Assembly: GCA_965207225.1 (NCBI GenBank)
Contig: CBDBLV010000004.1
Coordinates: forward strand, 544,001-608,000
Source of the DNA: Dehalococcoidia bacterium
GTDB taxonomy: Bacteria; Chloroflexota; Dehalococcoidia; Plut-88900
Length of the DNA stretch: 64,000 bases
Direction of reading: 5' to 3'
Positions 44,902-55,357 of the stretch are shown here, in pieces. Under the pieces are notes generated by a model, which was not told the DNA's origin, searched no databases, and worked only from the letters and a program-made list of their open reading frames with translations. Every line of letters starts with the position of its first letter. Positions within the stretch are counted from its first letter, which is position 1. The position numbers were made by a program, and so were the translations under genes.

Positions 44902-45105
44902 CCGTCATCCCCGCCACAGAGAGTCGGAATCCATCCCCGGGCGGTGAGGCCGCTCATGCTGAGAGGCCCTCTTAAGCATGCCCCGAGTCCCTCGAGGGGT
45001 ATGAGCGGGGGGGAGGCTCGCGTACAGTCCACCCGTCGCGCCCTTCCACATCCACTCCCCTCTCTGTCATCCCGAGGCCCCGCGAGGGATCTAGGACTTG
45101 CCCAC
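44902..45105 (+). repeat. ordered REP-like cluster R3-R1-R2
   Basis: GTCATCCCCG..GGAATCCA (44902), CCGCTCATGCTGAG..TATGAGCGG (44950), GTCATCCCGAGGCCCCGCGAGGGATCT (45064). Confidence 0.75.
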
Positions 45106-45159
45106 CTACATCTTTCCATGTCATACCTTCCCTTCTCCCCCGACCCCACCTCCCACCTA

Positions 45160-45194
45160 TTGATTTTGTAAATGTATGTGCTATACTTATGTTC
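45160..45194 (+). promoter_or_regulatory. sigma70 promoter with extended -10
   Basis: TTGATT-16 nt-TATACT with a TGn extension, in an AT-rich island. Confidence 0.6.
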
Positions 45195-45379
45195 GTGGCA
45201 CCGGCCTCGTTACCCGGGCCACCAAACCAGGAAAGGACTAAAGGAGTCCCATGAGCCGCATAGGCCTCACATGGCCCCGTCGCACCCGGTCGGTATGGGA
45301 CCGACCCTCTGCCGACACGCACCTCCTCCCCACTACCTTTCCGCCTACCGTGTCCCTCAGCCCTTCACCCTTCCCCCGT

Positions 45380-45808
45380 GGAAGTTCAAAGCCCAGCGCC
45401 CCCTCTCGACCACTGTCGTCCGGCGTCACTAAGGAGCCGCAACTTACCTTGCTGCCCCACCCGGACGTGGATGCCCGCGGTTTTCCGCGGAAGGACCCCA
45501 CCTGCGCCCATAGCGGCGTACGGATGGATGCCTGCTTTCACTCGCTGCAGATGTTCCCACGGCTAACCCCCGCGAGTGCCCCCCTCCGCCGTGGATGCCT
45601 GCCCAGGCTCGCCGCAGATGTATTTCCCACAGCTAACCCTTTGCGAGCTTTCCCCTCCGCTGTGGATGCCCGCGCCTTTGCGCGGAGGTACGCCCGCAAC
45701 GCCCTACCCGGCCTTGCGAAGATTGCCCGGGCCAACGCCCAGGCGATTGCCCACGTTCCAACCCCCGACGCCCCGGCTTACGCCGCAGAGGGGGCGCTGG
45801 CAACTTCC
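45380..45808 (+). ncRNA. candidate structured ncRNA domain (cassette 1)
   Basis: closing helices 45380-86/45802-08 and 45393-406/45787-800; tandem modules with covarying pairs. Confidence 0.5.
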
Positions 45809-45853
45809 TCATTTAGTTCCTCTTCCTCCTACGCCATCCCCTCCCTTATTCCT

Positions 45854-45970
45854 AGTACTGAACTAGAGGCAAGCGCCTGCGCCATGGCGCAGGCGCTTGC
45901 CTCTGTTTTTTCCTCCCCCTCTCCCTTGAAGGCCCTAAGGGAGAGGGGGATCAAGGGGGTAAGGGTTCCC
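45854..45970 (+). repeat. element E copy A
   Basis: AGTACTGAACT + perfect 40-bp palindrome 45865-45904 + CCCCCTCTCCC/GGGAGAGGGGG hairpin; homologous to 53789-53905 and 54905-55044. Confidence 0.85.
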
Positions 45971-46175
45971 CTCCCCGCCCCTTAAACAATCAAACCCATG
46001 CCTGAAACCCCAATTCAATCAAAACCTCCCTAGAATCCGGGAGTCCCTTCCCCCACAATTGAATGCCCCGGCCACCGTCCGACCCCCGGCCGCTTGACCT
46101 GAACGCCCATAGGCGTAACAATGGCGCCCACAGGCCGGTCTTTACCCAATCGACTAGACGCAGGGGGTGAACGGG

Positions 46176-47276
46176 ATGGGATACCGGATTATTTCAGCGG
46201 ACAGCCACCTCGATCTGCAGTGGCTTCCCCACGACGCCTTTACTTCCAGGGCCCCGGCTGAGTGGAAGGACAAGGTCCCGTACGTCGAGGCCCGCCCCGA
46301 CGGCAACTACTGGATGGTCGAAGGCCGCACCATGACCCGCGCCGGCTGGTATGGCCCGGGCGTCAACGGCGGCAAGCGCGGCGAGATGCTCGAAAGGGAG
46401 GGCTTCACCGTCGGCGACCTCCGCTGCTCCGACTACCAGCTCAGAAAGGCCGACCAGGAACGCGACGGCGTCGACGCCGAGGTCATCTACGGCATCCTCA
46501 CCACCGACCGCAGCTTCGACGACAAGGAAGCCCTCGCCGCCACCTACCGCGCCTACAACGACTACATCTCCGAATGGCAGCAATACGACCCCGACTGGCT
46601 CGTGCCCCTCGGCGAGATCCCCAACCATGACGGCAAGGCCGCCGGCGGTGAGCTCTCCCGCCTGGCCGAGATCGGTGTCCGCGGCGCTGAGTTCGCCCCG
46701 GCAACCATGACTCACCCCTTCTGGAGCGACGAGTGGGAGCCCCTCTGGGATGCCGGCGAAGAGACTCAGCTTCCCGTCTCATTCCACGCCTTCAACATCT
46801 CGACCACCTTCTCCGACAAGGACCACCCCTCCGCCGCCGCCGTCAGCCTCTGTCTCGCCCCATCACGCGCCGACGAAGTCCTCTGCGCCCTCATCTTCTC
46901 CGGCGTCCTCGAACGCCACCCGAGACTCAACGCCATCCTCGGCGAGAGCGGCATCGGCTGGCTGCCCTTCATGCTGGAGCGCATGGACTACTCTTACGAC
47001 CGCCGCCTCACCGACCTCGAACTCCCCCTCCTCCCCTCCGAGTACTTCAAGCGGCAGGTCTACGCCAGCTTCATCATCGACTACTGGGGCACAAAGGCCA
47101 TGTGGGAGCTCGGCTACCTAAAGAACATCATGTGGTCCACCGACTACCCCCACCGCGATGGCTCCTGGCCCGACTCCCAGGAGATCATCGACCGCACCTT
47201 CAAGGACCTCCCTGAGGACGTCAAGAAGGCCTGCGTCCACGACAACGTCGTCCGCCTCTTCAACCTCAACGACTGA
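46176..47276 (+). CDS. amidohydrolase_2 family protein
   Basis: SADSH, VSFH, GESGIGW, MWSTDYPH. Confidence 0.9.
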   Translation: MGYRIISADSHLDLQWLPHDAFTSRAPAEWKDKVPYVEARPDGNYWMVEGRTMTRAGWYGPGVNGGKRGEMLEREGFTVGDLRCSDYQLRKADQERDGVDAEVIYGILTTDRSFDDKEALAATYRAYNDYISEWQQYDPDWLVPLGEIPNHDGKAAGGELSRLAEIGVRGAEFAPATMTHPFWSDEWEPLWDAGEETQLPVSFHAFNISTTFSDKDHPSAAAVSLCLAPSRADEVLCALIFSGVLERHPRLNAILGESGIGWLPFMLERMDYSYDRRLTDLELPLLPSEYFKRQVYASFIIDYWGTKAMWELGYLKNIMWSTDYPHRDGSWPDSQEIIDRTFKDLPEDVKKACVHDNVVRLFNLND

Positions 47277-47299
47277 CCTCTACATTCCCACCAACGACA

Positions 47300-47331
47300 A
47301 ATCGGCGGGTGCGATATCGCACCCGCCGATT
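47300..47331. terminator. palindromic hairpin between convergent genes
   Basis: perfect 32-bp palindrome AATCGGCGGGTGCGATATCGCACCCGCCGATT. Confidence 0.65.
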
Positions 47332-47359
47332 CATTTGTTGAACTTATCGAAGCTTAGGG

Positions 47360-48274
47360 CTATCCGATTGCCGGCGCGGCCTCTCGGGCCAGGACGCCCA
47401 AGTCGCTCATCAGACCTTCCAGCCTCGATTCCTGCTCCGCGGTCAGGGGCCTGAACGGGGAGCGCGGAATGCCGATGTCCACGCCAGCCATTGCCGTGGC
47501 GGCCTTTGCGGTAGCGGCGTATCCCTCGGTCTCGAAGAAGTGGTTCAGGCGGTACAGCGGTCTCCACAGTTCGCGGGCGGCGTGCCAGTCCTTGCGCTCA
47601 ACCACCAGCTCGAAGAGCTCCACACAGCGCCCGGGAGTCGCATTGGCTACGCCCCACACGCAGCCCTTGGCCCCGTGCAGCAGCCCGGCCAGAGAACCGG
47701 TGTCCGAGCCGTTGAAGATGATCAGGTCTTCAGACCTCTCCTCCAGCACCCGTTGGAACTGGACTAGGTCCCCGGTGGAGTCCTTGATCATCTGGACGTT
47801 GGGTATTTCCACCAACCGGGCCAGGACCTCGGGGGTGAGATTGACCTTCGAGTGGGCGGGGATGTTGTAGACCATGATTGGCAGGGGGACCGCATCGTTG
47901 ACGGCCTGGTAGTGGTCGACCAGCTCCTGGGTGGTGGGCACCTCGTAGAAGGGCGGCACGATCATCAGGGCGTCGCAGCCTGCGGCCTCGGCGTGCTTGC
48001 TCAGCTCTATCACTTCCCAGGTGCTGCATGCGCCCGTGTGGGCCATGACCGGCACCCGACCCGCCACCTGGTCTACGGTCATCTCGGTGACCCGCTTCCG
48101 CTCCTCGAAGCTCAGGCTTGCGAACTCGCCGGTGCCGCCGCATGGGATGATCCCGTGGACACCGTTCTCCAGCTGGAACTCGATGAGCCTTCTCAAGCTC
48201 CCCTCATCGATGCTCTGGTCTCCCCGGGAGAAGGGGGTACAGATAGGGGTATAGATACCTCTGAATTTGCTCAC
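47360..48274 (-). CDS. dihydrodipicolinate synthase/N-acetylneuraminate lyase family protein
   Basis: GGTGEF, MVYNIP, IKDSTGD; GTG start behind AAGGAGG. Confidence 0.88.
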   Translation of the reverse strand: MSKFRGIYTPICTPFSRGDQSIDEGSLRRLIEFQLENGVHGIIPCGGTGEFASLSFEERKRVTEMTVDQVAGRVPVMAHTGACSTWEVIELSKHAEAAGCDALMIVPPFYEVPTTQELVDHYQAVNDAVPLPIMVYNIPAHSKVNLTPEVLARLVEIPNVQMIKDSTGDLVQFQRVLEERSEDLIIFNGSDTGSLAGLLHGAKGCVWGVANATPGRCVELFELVVERKDWHAARELWRPLYRLNHFFETEGYAATAKAATAMAGVDIGIPRSPFRPLTAEQESRLEGLMSDLGVLAREAAPAIG

Positions 48275-48431
48275 ATTACTCCTCCTTATTGGTGCAGTCC
48301 CGTTGGACTGCCCTTGCGGTCTCAGTGGTTGAATGCTAGCAAAGCCCGACACCCCTGACAACTCCGCAATAGGCCGTGCTAGAATCCTCCCGAATGGCCC
48401 GAAGACTATACCCACCTTTTGGAGGAATAAC

Positions 48432-48884
48432 GTGCAGGTAGAACAGAAGCTGCAAGAACTGGGCATAACCTTGCCCGAGGTCCGGGACCCGGTCGGCAAC
48501 TACGTCCCGACCGTCCGAACCGGGAACCTTCTCTACGTCTCAGGCCACATAGGAGACCTGACCGACGCCCTCGGCCAGCTGGGCACGGATCTCACGGTGG
48601 AGGAGGGGTACGAAGCCGCCCGAAAGACGGCAATTGCACTCCTTGGTTCAGTGAAGGGCGCCATCGGTGACCTGGACAAGGTTAAGAGGGTGGTCAAGCT
48701 GCTGTGTATGGTCAATGCGGCAGTCGGGTTCACGCAGCACCCCTCGGTTGCCAACGGATGCTCGGACTTGCTGGTGGAGGTATTCGGGGAAAAGGGTCGG
48801 CATGCCAGATCAGCCATAGGCTTCTCCGGCCTTCCCGGCAACGGCTGCATCGAGATAGAGATGATCCTCGAAATCGAGGATTAA
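48432..48884 (+). CDS. RidA/YjgF family protein
   Basis: GNYVP, VANGCSDLL, GRHARSA; GGAGG RBS. Confidence 0.88.
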   Translation: MQVEQKLQELGITLPEVRDPVGNYVPTVRTGNLLYVSGHIGDLTDALGQLGTDLTVEEGYEAARKTAIALLGSVKGAIGDLDKVKRVVKLLCMVNAAVGFTQHPSVANGCSDLLVEVFGEKGRHARSAIGFSGLPGNGCIEIEMILEIED

Positions 48885-48908
48885 GGAGTGCCTTCCTAGG
48901 GAGCCGGC

Positions 48909-49208
48909 ATGGATATCAGTGCCCCGATACATCCCAGAGAACATTTGGCCGAAATCATAGAAGAGTTGGATATAAGCCAATATCGCCTTGCCGTCACTAT
49001 TGGAGTGCCGCCCAGACGAATCAACGAGATTGTGCATGGCAGGCGCTCCATAACTGCCGACACAGCACTCCGAATTGGCAAGGCCCTTGACATGACTCCC
49101 GAGTTTTGGCTCAACCTCCAGCGGATGTTTGATCTGGATGTCGCTAGTGCGACAACGGATGTCTCCGGGATTGATACGCTCGTCCCGAGTCCGAAAGGCT
49201 CCCCGTGA
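48909..49208 (+). CDS. higA: HigA-family HTH antitoxin (orphan)
   Basis: PIHPRE.L, RINEIVHGRRSITADTALR, FWLNLQ. Confidence 0.88.
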   Translation: MDISAPIHPREHLAEIIEELDISQYRLAVTIGVPPRRINEIVHGRRSITADTALRIGKALDMTPEFWLNLQRMFDLDVASATTDVSGIDTLVPSPKGSP

Positions 49209-49231
49209 AAGCAGGTCTTCCTCGATTTGCG

Positions 49232-51916
<2,685 letters not shown>

Positions 51917-51998
51917 TGGTCTCTCGTTTACGAAGTTTGTGGAAAGGCATCGGCGGGACGGCTCACGGGTGGGAGTATATCACGCAGCACCGAGCAGA

Positions 51999-53372
51999 TT
52001 AGGCGAGCTCTCGTTCCACATCCGAGAGCACCTTGTCCACCTGCCCGACCACGTAGTCGATCTCGTCTCGGGTGACGATGAGCGGGGGAATCAGGAATAT
52101 GATGTCGCCCCTCTGTCGGGCGAGGAGGCCGTGGCGGAGGAAGGCTGCGGTAATCTTTTGGCCGAGAGCTGCGTCTGCCGGGAAGCGCTCGCGGGTGTTC
52201 CTGTCCTTGACCAGCTCAATGCCGCAGAGGAGTCCCAGGCCGCCACGTATGTCTCCGACTATGGGGTGTTCGTAGAGGGTCTGTAGCTGGTCGAAGAGGT
52301 AGGCGCCCATCCTGGCGGAGTTCTCGACCAGGCCTTCGCGGTCGAGGATGTCCAGGTTGGCAAGCGCTGCGGCACAGGCGGCCGGGTGTCCGCCGAAAGT
52401 GAAGATGTGACGGAACATCTCGCGGTCGCCGCCAATGAAGGTGTCGGCGACTTTCCTGGTGGCGATGGCGGCGCCGATGGGCTGGTACCCGCTGGACAGG
52501 CCCTTGGCCCCGACCAGGATGTCGGGCACGAGGTCCCAGTGGTCGGAGGCGAACATCTTGCCCGTGCGACCAAAGCCTGTGACCACTTCATCGGCGATGA
52601 TGAGGACGCCGTAGCGGTCGCAGATGGAGCGGACGGTGGGCCAGTAGTCGGGGTGGGGGACGGTACAGGTGGCGGCGGAAAGGGGTTCGGCGACGAAGGC
52701 GGCGACAAGCTCGGGACCCTCGTCGAGGATGGCCCTCTCCACGTCCTGGCCGCACTGCAGGGTGCATTCGCCCATCTGGCTGCAATAGAGGCAGCGGTAG
52801 GGGTTGGGCATGGAGACGTGAACGTTGCCCGGCATCAGGGGTCCGAAGTCCTTGTCACCAGCGCCGGCCCCTCCGCCGAGGCTGATGGTGGCGAGGGTGC
52901 CGCCGTGGTATGAGCCGATCCTGCTTATGACCTTGTAGCGGCCCGGTTCGCCGCGGAGCTTGTGGTATTTCTTGGCCATTTTGAGGGCGGTCTCAATGCC
53001 CTCGGAGCCGCCGCTGACCAGGAAGACCCGGGACTCCTTGTCGGGGGCGAGGGAGGCGAGCTTTTCGACGAGGCGCAGTGCTGGCTCGTTGGTGGTGTGT
53101 TCCGGGGAGTAGTTGATCTTCACCAGCTGGTCTGCCACTGCGTCTGCGATCTCCCGACGGCCGTAGCCTACATTCTGCAGCTGCATCCCGGAGATGAGGT
53201 CGAAATAGCGGTTGCCGTGGATGTCCTCGACCCAACAGCCCTCTCCCCTTTCGACGATGTTGAGGCCGCCGGGCTGGGATAGCTCCGCGACCTGTTGGGA
53301 ATGAGGCCAGAAGTGGTCGGCGGCGATCTGCTGGAGCCGGTCGAAGCGTTCAGATGGGGTCGGGGATATCAC
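51999..53372 (-). CDS. aminotransferase class III (omega-amino acid/taurine:pyruvate-like)
   Basis: SGGSEG, SYHG, DEVVTGFGRTG, AKGLSSGY; start uncertain. Confidence 0.88.
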   Translation of the reverse strand: MISPTPSERFDRLQQIAADHFWPHSQQVAELSQPGGLNIVERGEGCWVEDIHGNRYFDLISGMQLQNVGYGRREIADAVADQLVKINYSPEHTTNEPALRLVEKLASLAPDKESRVFLVSGGSEGIETALKMAKKYHKLRGEPGRYKVISRIGSYHGGTLATISLGGGAGAGDKDFGPLMPGNVHVSMPNPYRCLYCSQMGECTLQCGQDVERAILDEGPELVAAFVAEPLSAATCTVPHPDYWPTVRSICDRYGVLIIADEVVTGFGRTGKMFASDHWDLVPDILVGAKGLSSGYQPIGAAIATRKVADTFIGGDREMFRHIFTFGGHPAACAAALANLDILDREGLVENSARMGAYLFDQLQTLYEHPIVGDIRGGLGLLCGIELVKDRNTRERFPADAALGQKITAAFLRHGLLARQRGDIIFLIPPLIVTRDEIDYVVGQVDKVLSDVERELA

Positions 53373-53451
53373 AACAGCAACCCTAAGATGCCGGTTTCCT
53401 GAGGAACGTTCGGAAAGGAGGGCAAGAAGCAGACTCAAAGAAAAAAGGCAC

Positions 53452-53567
53452 CCGGCGGCGACCTATTTTCCGCGGAGAGTTGCCCCTCTAGTATCGTCGG
53501 CGCAGAGGTGTTTCACTTCCGTGTTCGGAATGAGAACGGGTGGGCCCACCTCGCTATAGCCACCGCA
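53452..53567 (-). rRNA. rrf: 5S rRNA (stand-alone)
   Basis: GCGGUGGCUAUAGCG...CACCCGUUCUCAUUCCGAACACGGAAGUGAA...AAUAGGUCGCCGCC, canonical 5S motifs. Confidence 0.95.
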
Positions 53568-53587
53568 GTGCCTTTATTCAGGGACGA

Positions 53588-53616
53588 ATTCTACTATGAC
53601 ACCGATGTCGGCGCAA
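53588..53616 (-). promoter_or_regulatory. sigma70 promoter of the 5S gene
   Basis: TTGCGC-17 nt-TAGAAT on minus strand, about 20 nt upstream of 5S. Confidence 0.6.
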
Positions 53617-53788
53617 GGGCTTGTGTTCGTTCCGGAGGTTGGCGACATGCTAAGTCTCTATTCAGTTGTGGGGGGTGGGGTTTTGGTTGAACGTTGATTG
53701 AACTCGTAGCTGGTTTGATTGAATGACGCCTAAAGGGATTGCTGAGAATTTCGCGTGGTGCGGGGAGGGGATGCCTCCAGCCCCGCGG

Positions 53789-53905
53789 GGGAACCCTCAC
53801 CCCCTTGGTCCCCCTCTCCCTTGGGGCCTTAAAGGGAGAGGGGGAGAGAAGAACAGAGGAAGAGGTTGGCGCTGCAGCGCCAACCTCTTCCTCTAGTTCA
53901 GTACT
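53789..53905 (-). repeat. element E copy B
   Basis: perfect 40-bp palindrome 53855-53894 within conserved flanks. Confidence 0.85.
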
Positions 53906-54036
53906 GGTAAGAGGGGAGGGTATGACGCATAAGGAAGCGCAGGGCGTGGATTCCCGCTTGGGGGCCGGAATAGCGGGATTGGAAGTTATTCAGTTTGGGG
54001 GCACGTTGTCGGTTCTGTCTGTTGGGGTTTAGGGTC

Positions 54037-54495
54037 GGCGATGGAAGACGCACCTGGAGCGGTGACCCCGCAGGGTGTCGCTGGCCCGGCCGTACGGGGT
54101 CGGTCAGTCCGGTCCCGCCTCACTGGACGGTCGGACTGCGGCCGGCAGAAGCCCCTTTCTTTAGTGTCGGCTTGGAGGCGTCCCAGGGCTGGGGACGTGT
54201 CTCCGCCGCTGCCTAGATCTGGCTGTGTAGGCGGACATACGGGTCCGTCATCCGTCACAGGTTCCAATAAACGGGTTAGCTGCGCTGTAAGTGAATACAG
54301 GAAGGGGAATGTCCAGAGTCATGTCCCCACGCAGGAGTACGGGGTTTCCAGTTCGCCGCCTGTATCCAGGAACCCGGAGTGGCGGTCTGCCCAGTTTCAT
54401 TTGCTGAAGCGGACGGAGAGCCGAGCGGTCCTCGGCTACGGGCGACCCCGTTCCGCTCCTTAGGTCGGGTTGCTCCAGGGCGTCTTTCCATCGCC
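54037..54495 (-). ncRNA. candidate large structured ncRNA domain (cassette 2)
   Basis: 24-nt bulged closing helix 54472-95/54037-60; many internal helices with G-U pairs on the minus strand. Confidence 0.55.
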
Positions 54496-54534
54496 TGGGG
54501 GGACAGGGGAATGTGATGGGTCGGGACGATGTGG

Positions 54535-54771
54535 AGGAGATGGCGCCTTTCGCTTGTGCCGCAGGCCTCTCTTTTATCCGTTCTTAATACCCTTCGACAA
54601 GCTCAGGGCGAACGGAACGGAGAAGGCCGTTGGGATGGGCCAGGACGTTGAGTCCTCCGGGCGCCGGGATAGGAGATGGCGTCTGTCGCTTGTGCCGCAA
54701 CCTGTCCGCCTCACAAGGGAGGGGAGAGGCATTGGGATGGGCTTGGGCGTTGAGTCCTCTCGGGCGCCGGG
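54535..54771 (-). repeat. imperfect tandem duplication in cassette-2 leader
   Basis: AGGAGATGGCG..TCGCTTGTGCCGCA at 54535/54671; TTGGGATGGGC..CGTTGAGTCCTC..GGGCGCCGGG at 54630/54732. Confidence 0.8.
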
Positions 54772-54825
54772 GTTGTTCCCCTTGGGTTTTCGGGTTCCTC
54801 CTTAAGGTGGTGTCGGGTCTAGACT

Positions 54826-54861
54826 TAGAACAAATATAAAGCTCAAGTGTTTGCATGTCAA
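54826..54861 (-). promoter_or_regulatory. near-consensus sigma70 promoter
   Basis: TTGACA (54861-56)-17 nt-TATATT (54838-33); no credible CDS downstream. Confidence 0.7.
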
Positions 54862-54904
54862 GGGGTATGTTACGTTTATGGAGGGAATATCCCCCGGTCC
54901 CCCA

Positions 54905-55044
54905 GGAAACCCTCACCCCCTTGATCCCCCTCTCCCCCTCGAGGGACTCGGGGCAGGCTCTTAGGGCCTTTAAGGGAGAGGGGGAAAGAAGAACAGAGAC
55001 AGACGTGGGTGCGTTGCACCCACGTCTGTCTTTAGTTCAGTACT
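54905..55044 (-). repeat. element E copy C (with 24-nt insertion)
   Basis: 39-nt hairpin 54995-55033 within conserved flanks; insertion at 54937-54960. Confidence 0.85.
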
Positions 55045-55065
55045 GAGGGGACAGAACCCCGCCCC

Positions 55066-55357
55066 AGATTCCTCGCGGGGCATCGGAATGACAGTGAGGG
55101 GTGTGATTGGCTATGGAGGGATGCGACGGGTCGGCAGGATGTGGGCCTCGCCCCGCTCATACTTCGAGGGCCTCAGCACGAGCGGCCCCACCCCAGGGCA
55201 ATCCTTTGTGATTGCCGCTACGCGGGAGGGGATACCCCCAGCTCCACGGGATGGATTCCCGATCGGAGTCGGGAATGACGGATGTGAGGAGGGATGCCAG
55301 GGGTGAGGGACGTGAGTGGGCAAGTCCTAGATTCCTCGCGGGGCATCGGAATGACAG
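55066..55357 (-). repeat. ordered REP-like cluster R2-R3-R1-R2
   Basis: reverse-complement copies of the 44902-45105 repeats at 55316-57, 55248-81, 55146-85, 55066-94. Confidence 0.75.

Follow-up and report, generated by a model that had tools for sequence, protein, structure and literature searches.

Mosaic intergenic repeats of Dehalococcoidia: a lineage-restricted family built around a structure-constrained hairpin

A 64-kb stretch of a Dehalococcoidia contig (CBDBLV010000004.1, positions 544,001 to 608,000; hereafter the window, whose own coordinates are used throughout) carries three copies, A, B and C, of an intergenic element organized around a long hairpin whose sequence differs from copy to copy. 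An earlier note on this DNA had placed them at 45854-45970 (A, + strand), 53905-53789 (B, - strand) and 55044-54905 (C, - strand), and they lie there with the sequences it gave. Matches to a profile of the family, described below, set the core elements at 45836-45972 for copy A (E 7.9e-38), 53787-53923 for copy B (read as 53923-53787, E 1.9e-39) and 54903-55054 for copy C (read as 55054-54903, E 9.6e-35). Because B and C both lie on the - strand they are direct repeats, separated by about 1 kb of non-coding DNA, and copy A is inverted relative to both.

Read along the element strand, all three copies follow one order: a C/T-rich lead, AGTACTGAACT, a hairpin of 39-40 nt (the upper part of hairpin 1), GTT(T/C)TT with further pyrimidines, a second hairpin TCCCCCTCTCCC-loop-GGGAGAGGGGGA (hairpin 2), and the tail (T/C)CAAGGGGGT(A/G)AGGGTT. 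In copy A, the lead (45836-45853) is followed by the AGTACT junction (45854-45859), the basal stem GAAC (45860-45863), a bulged T (45864), the 40-nt hairpin (45865-45904), GTTTTTTCC (45905-45913), hairpin 2 (45914-45950) and a tail beginning TCAAGGGGGTAAGGGTT (45951-45972). The same parts of copy B are AGTACT (53905-53900), GAAC (53899-53896), the bulged T (53895), the 40-nt hairpin (53894-53855), GTTC (53854-53851) and then the U-rich run, hairpin 2 (53845-53809) and a tail ending at 53787. Copy C has AGTACTGAACT at 55044-55034, a 39-nt hairpin at 55033-54995 with one A-C mismatch and the loop AAC, GTTC at 54994-54991, hairpin 2 at 54985-54925 and a tail ending at 54903; its hairpin 2 loop holds a 24-nt insertion, itself a repeat that occurs a second time at 44975-44999. 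The hairpins of A (45865-45904) and B (53855-53894) are perfect 40-bp palindromes, and that of C has 16-nt perfect arms around a 3-nt centre. At the base, GAAC-T-AGAG pairs with CTCT-GTTC around a single bulged T in B and C; in copy A the outermost pair is G-T.

Only five perfect hairpins (arms ≥11 nt, loop ≤7 nt) occur in the window, and three of them are copies A, B and C. The string AGTACTGAACT occurs three times, each time exactly; since shuffled sequences average 7.06 matches when up to two mismatches are allowed, this count alone proves nothing. By contrast, CCCCCTCTCCC at no more than one mismatch occurs 16 times versus 6.4 expected, a number reached in none of 100 shuffles, and its six exact matches are the arms of hairpin 2. 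As RNA, copies A and B fold at -86.7 kcal/mol (z -8.11) and -84.8 kcal/mol (z -8.48), respectively, and folding of the strands opposite to them is almost as stable (z -8.1 and -6.6).

A pattern search revealed that these copies belong to a family. Scanning the pattern AGTACTGAACT-N(30-60)-CCCCCTCTCCC across a genome-contig collection returned 77 further distinct copies at 76 loci (numbered with the prefix L) in nine Dehalococcoidia metagenome-assembled genomes, the window itself not being among them. Although the pattern permitted 30-60 nt, the gap between the two anchors was 47-52 nt in all 77 copies and 49 or 50 nt in 61 of them. A profile built from 40 uninterrupted copies was run on the fetched loci and the window; it gave 262 matches (overlapping loci counted twice), 116 of them outside the exact-pattern copies, and yielded 96 full-length distinct copies. 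The counts that follow refer to three sets: 80 copies (the 77 pattern copies and the three in the window), a 65-copy alignment used for covariation, and the 96 copies of the profile set.

The family core spans about 135 nt and comprises a C/T-rich lead, AGTAC(T/C), hairpin 1, a U-rich run reading GTTCTTCTCT or GTTTTTTCC, hairpin 2 with a conserved CCCCCTCTCCC/GGGAGAGGGGG stem, and the tail AYCAAGGGGGTGAGGGTT. One subfamily, TGAACT...GTTCT, has 59 copies (about 63 if four reading GTTCA are included); a second, CAAACT...GTTT(T/A), has 15. Copy A is a chimera of the two, with the left flank of the TGAACT subfamily and the core and right flank (GTTTT) of the CAAACT subfamily. Decayed copies also occur: the palindrome is broken in L004, and several copies have lost one arm (for example L013:13172-13298 and L063:9149-9101). 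The copies are scattered singly over whole chromosomes. Rfam at gathering scores, applied to the window and likewise to four loci, found nothing for the element or for the adjoining cassettes, the window yielding only a 5S rRNA and a tRNA; at E values up to 5 the element matched microRNA models alone, scoring 21-29 bits where the thresholds are 55-297. A distant-match search of a plasmid collection returned nothing similar to the element, and a literature search by title and abstract returned no earlier description of this repeat family. The copies form a repeat family that is mosaic, intergenic and restricted to one lineage, with a hairpin under structural constraint.

Hairpin 1 comprises 22-23 bp: 4 bp at the base, then a single bulged T, and above it a stem of 18-19 bp closed by a loop of 3-4 nt. 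In 79 of the 80 copies this upper stem has 17-19 pairs; the loop measures 3 nt in 44 and 4 nt in 34. Covariation, counted on the 65-copy alignment against a hand-written structure, was concentrated in this hairpin: 19 of its 23 pairs changed on both sides while 98.7% of cells were paired, as compared to 1 of 15 pairs (97.9% paired) in hairpin 2 and 0 of 10 (90.3% paired) in a helix between lead and tail. The basal 4-bp helix of hairpin 1 covaries too (GC in 48 and AU in 14 copies at one pair, CG in 59 and UA in 4 at another), and its bulged T is invariant. The values for the whole structure were reached in none of 500 shuffles, and sliding the partners reduced pairing to 42-63% of cells versus the 96.7% observed.

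Within hairpin 1, the base (AGAGG/CCTCT, positions 1-5) and the tip (G.GC-loop-GC.C) are conserved and the middle ten pairs vary freely, such that 67 distinct left arms are found among the 96 copies. The earlier description of the core as fully variable was therefore too strong, given the conserved base and tip, while its companion claim, that length and symmetry are kept as the sequence changes, agrees with the covariation and with the constant stem. The description of a base with one extrahelical T fits B, C and the family at large, copy A departing from it only in its outermost G-T pair. The term perfect palindrome suits A and B, not the family: self-complementary even-length loops number 3 of 35, two of them those of A and B, and since the loops of the family are normally not palindromic the perfect 40-mers of these copies are a matter of chance. 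Outside the helices, the single-stranded junctions AGUACU, UCUCU and AYCAA are conserved, and a GTAC tag (within AGTACT or AGTACC), 1 nt ahead of the basal stem, is at least 90% conserved in the 65 aligned copies. The lead-tail helix, which would close a three-way junction, was predicted in all 40 single folds examined and in the folds of the window copies; we leave it as unproven, since its pairing rests on C or U against G and none of its ten pairs shows a compensatory change. Together, the covariation and fixed length of hairpin 1 support a site defined by structure rather than by sequence, as had been proposed from the three copies.

How the two arms stay complementary can be read from their mismatches and loops. 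Across the 80 copies we tallied 1407 Watson-Crick pairs, 15 G-T, 15 A-C and 3 others. Selection at the RNA level would tolerate G-U, yet G-T is no commoner than A-C, so nothing suggests that RNA pairing is being selected. Identical stems carry loops that are reverse complements of each other (TTCT/AGAA, AGAC/GTCT, ACA/TGT and TCT/AGA), and in 5 of the 11 arm groups having more than one loop, a loop and its exact reverse complement occur together. The orthologous pairs L015/L073 and L020/L060, whose flanks are ~87-96% identical, differ solely by a flipped loop. A DNA-level process flips the loops and keeps the arms identical. Stems are also replaced: copy A and its orthologue in L045 have flanks that are 90% identical and cores that differ, the core of copy A recurs at L013:13292 and L045:17119, and at orthologous sites L003 differs from L015 and L073 at 4 of 18 arm positions. 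As copy A is chimeric, this replacement comes in part from other copies.

Template switching between short inverted-repeat arms is described, in excerpts of PMC8604942 and PMC8794818, as homogenizing the arms and inverting the spacer. The loop flips, together with the equal rarity of G-T and A-C, point to such switching, in keeping with the earlier suggestion that one arm is copied onto the other, and template switching would account for the symmetry of the mismatches, the loop flips and the stem replacement. During replication it would copy one arm onto the other, so that both remain Watson-Crick complementary, and it would also invert the loop. Only the geometry, base and tip of the stem would then be constrained, leaving the rest free to vary, and recombination between copies would also swap cores.

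Besides the second subfamily, two features beyond the earlier note emerged: a strand polarity, and a promoter after about half of the copies. Defining polarity by composition only, with the C-rich strand assigned to neither the leading nor the lagging strand, we found 73 of the 80 copies on the C-rich strand of their surroundings (±5 kb), 5 on the G-rich strand and 2 in flat sequence. The result was nearly the same when 600 nt on each side of the element were excluded (72, 6 and 2), and the profile set gave 89, 6 and 1 among 96 copies both overall and when coding DNA within 8 kb alone was considered (p 4.7e-20). All 29 copies on OZ241876.1 lie on the C-rich strand. Genes show no such bias (623 on the C-rich and 562 on the G-rich strand), and skew within genes is independent of the coding strand. 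Strand polarity of the element family is thus firmly established, and other modules of the same intergenic regions share it: a leader family, X, introduced below (37 C-rich, 3 G-rich, 2 flat), and a GTCATTCC..GGAATC hairpin (91 vs 8).

The 16S genes of two genomes and the 5S gene of the window also lie on the locally C-rich strand, which would be unexpected if the leading strand were G-rich; tRNA genes are split 15 vs 8. Copy strands along OZ241876.1 imply at least eight skew blocks, and therefore the skew is not a simple two-replichore pattern. In the window, the GC skew flips sign at ~47.3-48.5 kb, from about -0.15 to about +0.1, and this switch separates copy A from copies B and C. Beside it, between convergent genes, sits a perfect palindrome of 32 bp (47300-47331), extended by ACAAAT/ATTTGT with one bulged C. 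A replication origin at the switch was considered and rejected: the window contains no DnaA-box cluster, with 8 matches (at most one mismatch) vs 7.4 expected and none near 47-49 kb.

We scored the genes flanking the 80 copies, as predicted by a rough gene caller, by their orientation relative to the element. The upstream gene was opposite and the downstream gene the same in 31 copies, both were the same in 24, both were opposite in 9, and in 15 the upstream gene was the same and the downstream gene opposite, placing the element between convergent genes; one copy had no downstream gene called. In total, 55 of 79 downstream genes and 39 of 80 upstream genes run in the same direction as the element. 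Of the 80 copies, 39 are followed on their own strand, within 360 nt, by a predicted sigma-70-like promoter, which lies 83-341 nt (mostly 83-170 nt) past the second anchor. Other placements gave 0 (downstream, opposite strand), 2 (upstream, same strand) and 7 (upstream, opposite strand).

In the window, this arrangement delimits two cassettes, each consisting of a promoter, 0.6-0.9 kb of non-coding DNA and then the element, such that copies A and B end them. Cassette 1 (45160-45835, +) has a promoter-like site at 45160-45187 and a non-coding unit of ~620 nt belonging to a family that we call Y, and ends at copy A. Cassette 2 begins with the strong sigma-70-like promoter TTGACA-17-TATATT (11/12; 54833-54861, -) directly 3' of copy C, followed by a non-coding unit of family X (53924-54832, -; profile match 54806-54721) whose leader starts ..AAGGAGGAACC.. 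and which lies between copy C with this promoter and copy B. Copies B and C flank this cassette, as the earlier note had stated. Cassette 1 was 79-92% identical to four loci of related genomes in a five-way alignment; indels of 1 and 2 nt after the ATG mean that it has no coding frame. We therefore rejected the open reading frame (ORF) at 45251-45985 as a protein gene, in spite of the AAGGAG before its ATG: paralogues and orthologues differ by these indels, the ORF traverses the hairpin, and it has no Pfam match. A decayed gene was likewise rejected for the X leader, as no ORF is common to the X copies.

Three conserved non-coding families, X, Y and Z, are driven by these predicted promoters. 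Family X is a conserved leader of ~700 nt with its own TTGACA promoter and a start reading ..AAGGAGGAACCAAAAACCCAGGGAAGCCC.., and it has no Rfam match; besides the window it is found, for example, at L066 9226-9848 and L058 10219-10905, and at about 40 other places. Among its 42 distinct copies, 32 have the element within 600 nt upstream and 10 do not. Since these element-free copies retain the promoter and its upstream CCCCCAAAA-GTGACA motif, the promoter is part of X and not of the element. Of 40 copies, 34 are followed by a co-oriented gene, usually at a distance of 550-950 nt, and the genes in question are unrelated: a GlnRS/GluRS-type synthetase, FAD synthetase, gyrB, deformylase, FolD, MoaA, CofD, sulfite reductase and amidohydrolases. 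A long-range helix, GGCGATGGAAGG / CCTTCCATCGCC, closes X (in the window, 54472-54495 with 54037-54060). Family Y contains internal repeats of GTGGATGCC-hairpin modules and has other copies at L045 9291-10000, L072 6533-7205 (-), L047 10303-10883 and L053 10222-10808. Family Z lies 3' of the element in L003, L015, L073, L031 and L061.

Other features share these intergenic regions. A 5S rRNA gene (53450-53567, -; RF00001, 87.8 bits) is encoded on the strand of copy B, ~220 nt further downstream, and neither a 16S nor a 23S gene occurs in the 64-kb window. The rRNA genes are unlinked, with a lone 5S here and lone 16S genes in L066 (6042-7638, -) and L065 (6545-8141, -). A (T)CAATCAA-rich module is found 3' of the element in at least six copies (L001, L039, L046 and L065 among them); in the window it occupies 45973-46060, between copy A and an amidohydrolase gene, and 53650-53760, in the interval from copy B to the 5S gene. 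The motif ACAACTGAATA is found both close to the 3' part of X and 5' of the 5S gene. Small hairpins form a mosaic in the same regions, including GTCATTCC..GGAATCC, CTCGCC..GGCGAG and tandem TCGAAGATG units inside hairpin 2 loops; in the window such repeats lie at 45064-45112, 55063-55105 and 55309-55357, and they are present at all loci. The loci are also rich in large paralogue families: Amidohydro_2 (38), luciferase-like monooxygenases (35) and CoA-transferase III (29), as well as PTE and MFS.

Sites with and without the element can be compared directly. L071 carries, relative to L011, a clean 255-nt block consisting of two accessory hairpins, the element and a third hairpin, and the flanks of this block abut in L011; similarly, L049 and L035 contain a GTCATTCC..GGAATCC hairpin plus the element, and L042 has neither. 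These two comparisons revealed no convincing target duplication or terminal inverted repeat, no constant flanking tetranucleotide and no paired ends. The element is gained or lost as a block, along with neighbouring small hairpin modules.

A mobilizing enzyme was sought in the window and around the loci. The 54 ORFs of the window that were scanned are all ordinary metabolic or transport genes, with no integrase, transposase, recombinase or nuclease among them. The 1216 proteins predicted around the 76 loci were clustered, and Pfam was applied to 38 representatives of the 101 clusters with at least three members, the 660 proteins in clusters of one or two being set aside; no HUH/Y1 transposase, recombinase or resolvase was found among these representatives. 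A crude regular expression, HUH...Y(I/V)xx(N/Q)P, matched none of the 1216 proteins and nothing in six-frame translations of ~1.6 Mb (~20 kb around each copy). Just one protein family, an IS481-like rve transposase with 7 members, is represented repeatedly near the element; we rejected it as the element's enzyme, as it is inserted in the element rather than serving it. This insertion sequence (IS; rve, rve_3, HTH_32; ends TGTATAGACCGGGGAGA...) lies inside the hairpin 2 loop of at least five separate copies with AGGCC on both sides (L008 8740-10001, L013 10931-12192, L028 7407-8757, L046 7880-9227 and L063 1625-2850; variants in L041 and L048), and the loop therefore appears to be a preferred target.

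Taken together, the reading that we favour, at a probability of roughly 0.45, is that the element is a lineage-specific mosaic repeat resembling repetitive extragenic palindromes (REPs) and bacterial interspersed mosaic elements (BIMEs), or Correia elements, that would act as a terminator or insulator and whose arms would be kept by template switching. A terminator or insulator appears most likely because of the anatomy of the element, a terminator consensus scan, its placement at unit ends and between convergent genes, and its position ahead of promoters. Copies A, B and C were all flagged by the scan, their stems of 19, 19 and 16 pairs each leading into a T-rich tail, which agrees with the earlier listing of a terminator among the options. 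When the element strand is transcribed, hairpin 1 and the U-rich run would end the transcript; the element would in this way close the upstream unit and shield the promoter that often follows at a distance of about 90-170 nt. Like intrinsic terminators, the element has a G+C-rich hairpin with a U-rich run, and the upstream GAAC or AAAC pairs with GUUC or GUUU. Unlike them, its stem is about twice the usual length and fixed, its U-run is interrupted by C, and the hairpin forms part of a conserved 135-nt repeat that contains another hairpin as well.

The two groups of repeats named above are each only a partial match. Correia (NEMIS) elements of Neisseria and BOX elements are modular intergenic repeats of ~100-150 nt that form long hairpins when transcribed and can supply promoters or terminators. 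The present element differs from Correia elements in that their terminal inverted repeats and TA target duplication are seen at neither of its filled/empty sites, and in that the promoter here belongs to a separate module, some X copies having the promoter and no element. The likeness to REP/BIME sequences (REPINs included) is broader: excerpts of PMC6006769 and PMC3733652 describe short, multi-copy extragenic palindromes with a 5' tetranucleotide and an optionally bulged hairpin, forming mosaics with other small motifs, divided into subfamilies within one genome, serving as hot spots of IS insertion, lying 3' of genes and in the gaps between convergent ones, and suggested to function in termination and mRNA stability. 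The formal REP definition, as excerpted from PMC6006769, asks for GTAG or GTGG 0-2 nt 5' of a hairpin with a stem of 7-20 fully paired nt and a 2-5-nt loop, to which a bulge of 1-3 nt and an additional 1-10-nt stem may be added. Our element falls outside it on both counts, having the tag GTAC and a 4-bp base below an 18-19-bp upper stem, the reverse of the REP long hairpin. It further departs from REP/BIME sequences in that most of its stem varies between copies and it occurs as single copies rather than inverted doublets, with ~93% strand polarity. A search for a RAYT (REP-associated tyrosine transposase) gene in ~20 kb around each copy gave none.

Several observations weigh against a role in termination or insulation. 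Co-oriented upstream genes accompany only 39 of the 80 copies, leaving half of them with no obvious transcript to stop; the fixed-length stem of 22-23 bp is far longer than termination requires; and this reading assigns no role to three other conserved parts, hairpin 2, the AGTAC junction and the tail. The polarity to skew (89 of 96) is stronger than the co-orientation of the downstream gene (55 of 79), with genes themselves unbiased (623 vs 562); as a purely transcriptional role does not predict this polarity, strand-specific spread or selection tied to replication fits it better. Finally, the equal counts of G-T and A-C (15 each) give no sign of selection on RNA pairing, and all ten pairs of the lead-tail helix, which would close the three-way junction, lack compensatory change.

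A rival reading is a non-autonomous single-strand DNA element, akin to REP/RAYT systems or to palindrome-associated derivatives of IS200/IS605, for which any terminator activity would be a side effect; we consider this doubtful as a whole. An enzyme of the HUH/Y1 type would identify hairpin 1 from three features, its length, its tip and its base with the bulged T, and would cut near AGTAC, and movement on the strand exposed at the replication fork would fix the orientation. Such spread would match an orientation locked to the compositional strand (89 of 96) where genes are unbiased, the similar polarity of other small repeats such as the GTCATTCC..GGAATC hairpin (91 vs 8), the clean edges of filled and empty sites with no evident target duplication, and the retention of Watson-Crick pairs alone with no G-T preference, which suits a DNA hairpin. 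Excerpts of PMC6006769 add that Y1 transposases act on the lagging-strand template, and the placement of GTAC 1 nt 5' of a bulged hairpin corresponds to the general REP layout given there. The same excerpts give a tag of GTAG or GTGG and a basal stem of 7-20 bp, in contrast to the GTAC and 4 bp found here. Moreover, known Y1 enzymes read the sequence of the hairpin, most of which varies in this family, and the 16S and 5S genes lie on the C-rich strand. The transposase, recombinase or resolvase suggested in the earlier note was not encountered: none is present among the 54 window ORFs or the 38 of 101 cluster representatives around the 76 loci, and the regular expression, a crude screen of ~20 kb per copy, had no match in 1216 proteins or the six-frame loci. 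The ends of IS200/IS605 elements and of their derivatives lacking ORFs are similar to our element in their subterminal hairpins with an unpaired T, the absence of target duplication and a strong orientation bias relative to replication. In IS200, the left end carries a terminator hairpin ahead of the insertion sequence's own promoter. The hairpin described here is much longer and variable, however, no pair of left and right ends was recognized, and neither tnpA or tnpB in the sampled DNA nor a conserved target tetranucleotide was found.

A bolder form of this idea, which we regard as unlikely, is that the element is locked to a replication strand, has a stem read by shape only (bulged-T base, 22-23 bp, G.GC tip), moves as single-stranded DNA by means of an enzyme, and is part of a portable expression system. 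If so, the flip-flop of the loops would be a trace of hairpin intermediates, and the element, the promoter and the ~700-nt leader modules X, Y and Z would constitute a portable, strand-oriented expression system placed before unrelated housekeeping genes (gyrB, glnS, def, folD and ribF) in this Dehalococcoidia lineage.

A signal for RNA processing or stability is improbable. Here the 22-23-bp helix would be a cleavage site of the RNase III type or a block to 3' exonucleases, and the element would define the ends of the flanking non-coding RNAs, leaders and 5S rRNA precursor. The fixed helix length of about two turns, the conserved single-stranded junctions AGUACU, UCUCU and AYCAA, the stable three-way junction in the folds (z -8.1 and -8.5), and the positions of A and B, which end cassettes 1 and 2, with B 220 nt upstream of the 5S gene, are all consistent with it; the absence of G-U tolerance, the near-equal folding of the opposite strand (z -8.1 and -6.6), the lead-tail helix without covariation and the half of copies without a co-oriented upstream gene are not. 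Action as double-stranded DNA, whether by cruciform extrusion or by protein binding that sets supercoiling or insulates the adjacent promoter, is highly improbable. The BIME classes that bind gyrase and IHF are the model that it resembles, and strict Watson-Crick symmetry around 3-4-nt centres, the fixed position upstream of promoters and the presence of gyrB among the downstream genes would suit it. A G+C-rich palindrome centre, such as the GCGC-loop-GCGC found here, disfavours extrusion, however; a symmetric site needs neither a bulged T nor asymmetric flanks, and no partner protein is known. The element likewise does not resemble a miniature inverted-repeat transposable element: there is no clear duplication at the two filled/empty sites, and lead and tail are complementary just as C/T-rich versus G-rich runs rather than as terminal inverted repeats.

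In integron attC sites, whose function is strand-specific, R'' (RYYYAAC) and R' (GTTRRRY) pair over 7 bp and the L boxes carry extrahelical bases. The reading of the copies as attC sites with a gene cassette between them, suggested by the AAC...GTT hairpin base, the extrahelical base, the structure kept over a variable sequence and the direct repetition of B and C around a 1-kb unit, is close to refuted, as R' is GTTCTTC or GTTTTTT and R'' is ACTGAAC, the R and L boxes are absent, only 4 bp with a single bulged base are paired at the base, no integrase or other tyrosine recombinase was found among the 54 window ORFs or the scanned neighbours, the intervening cassettes are non-coding with promoters of their own, and the copies are dispersed singly over chromosomes.

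With some 100 natural replicates of one long hairpin, the family offers a clean case for the maintenance of palindromes by template switching and tests whether compensatory change needs selection at all. A polarity of ~93% to GC skew where genes are unbiased is unusual for intergenic repeats and points either to strand-specific spread or to selection tied to replication. In these uncultured genomes, the element and its partner modules provide landmarks for annotating intergenic DNA, the ends of transcription units and the break-points of inversions. The element also delimits long non-coding leaders that precede core genes and fall into three unannotated families; these leaders are probably the larger question, and may deserve more attention than the element itself.

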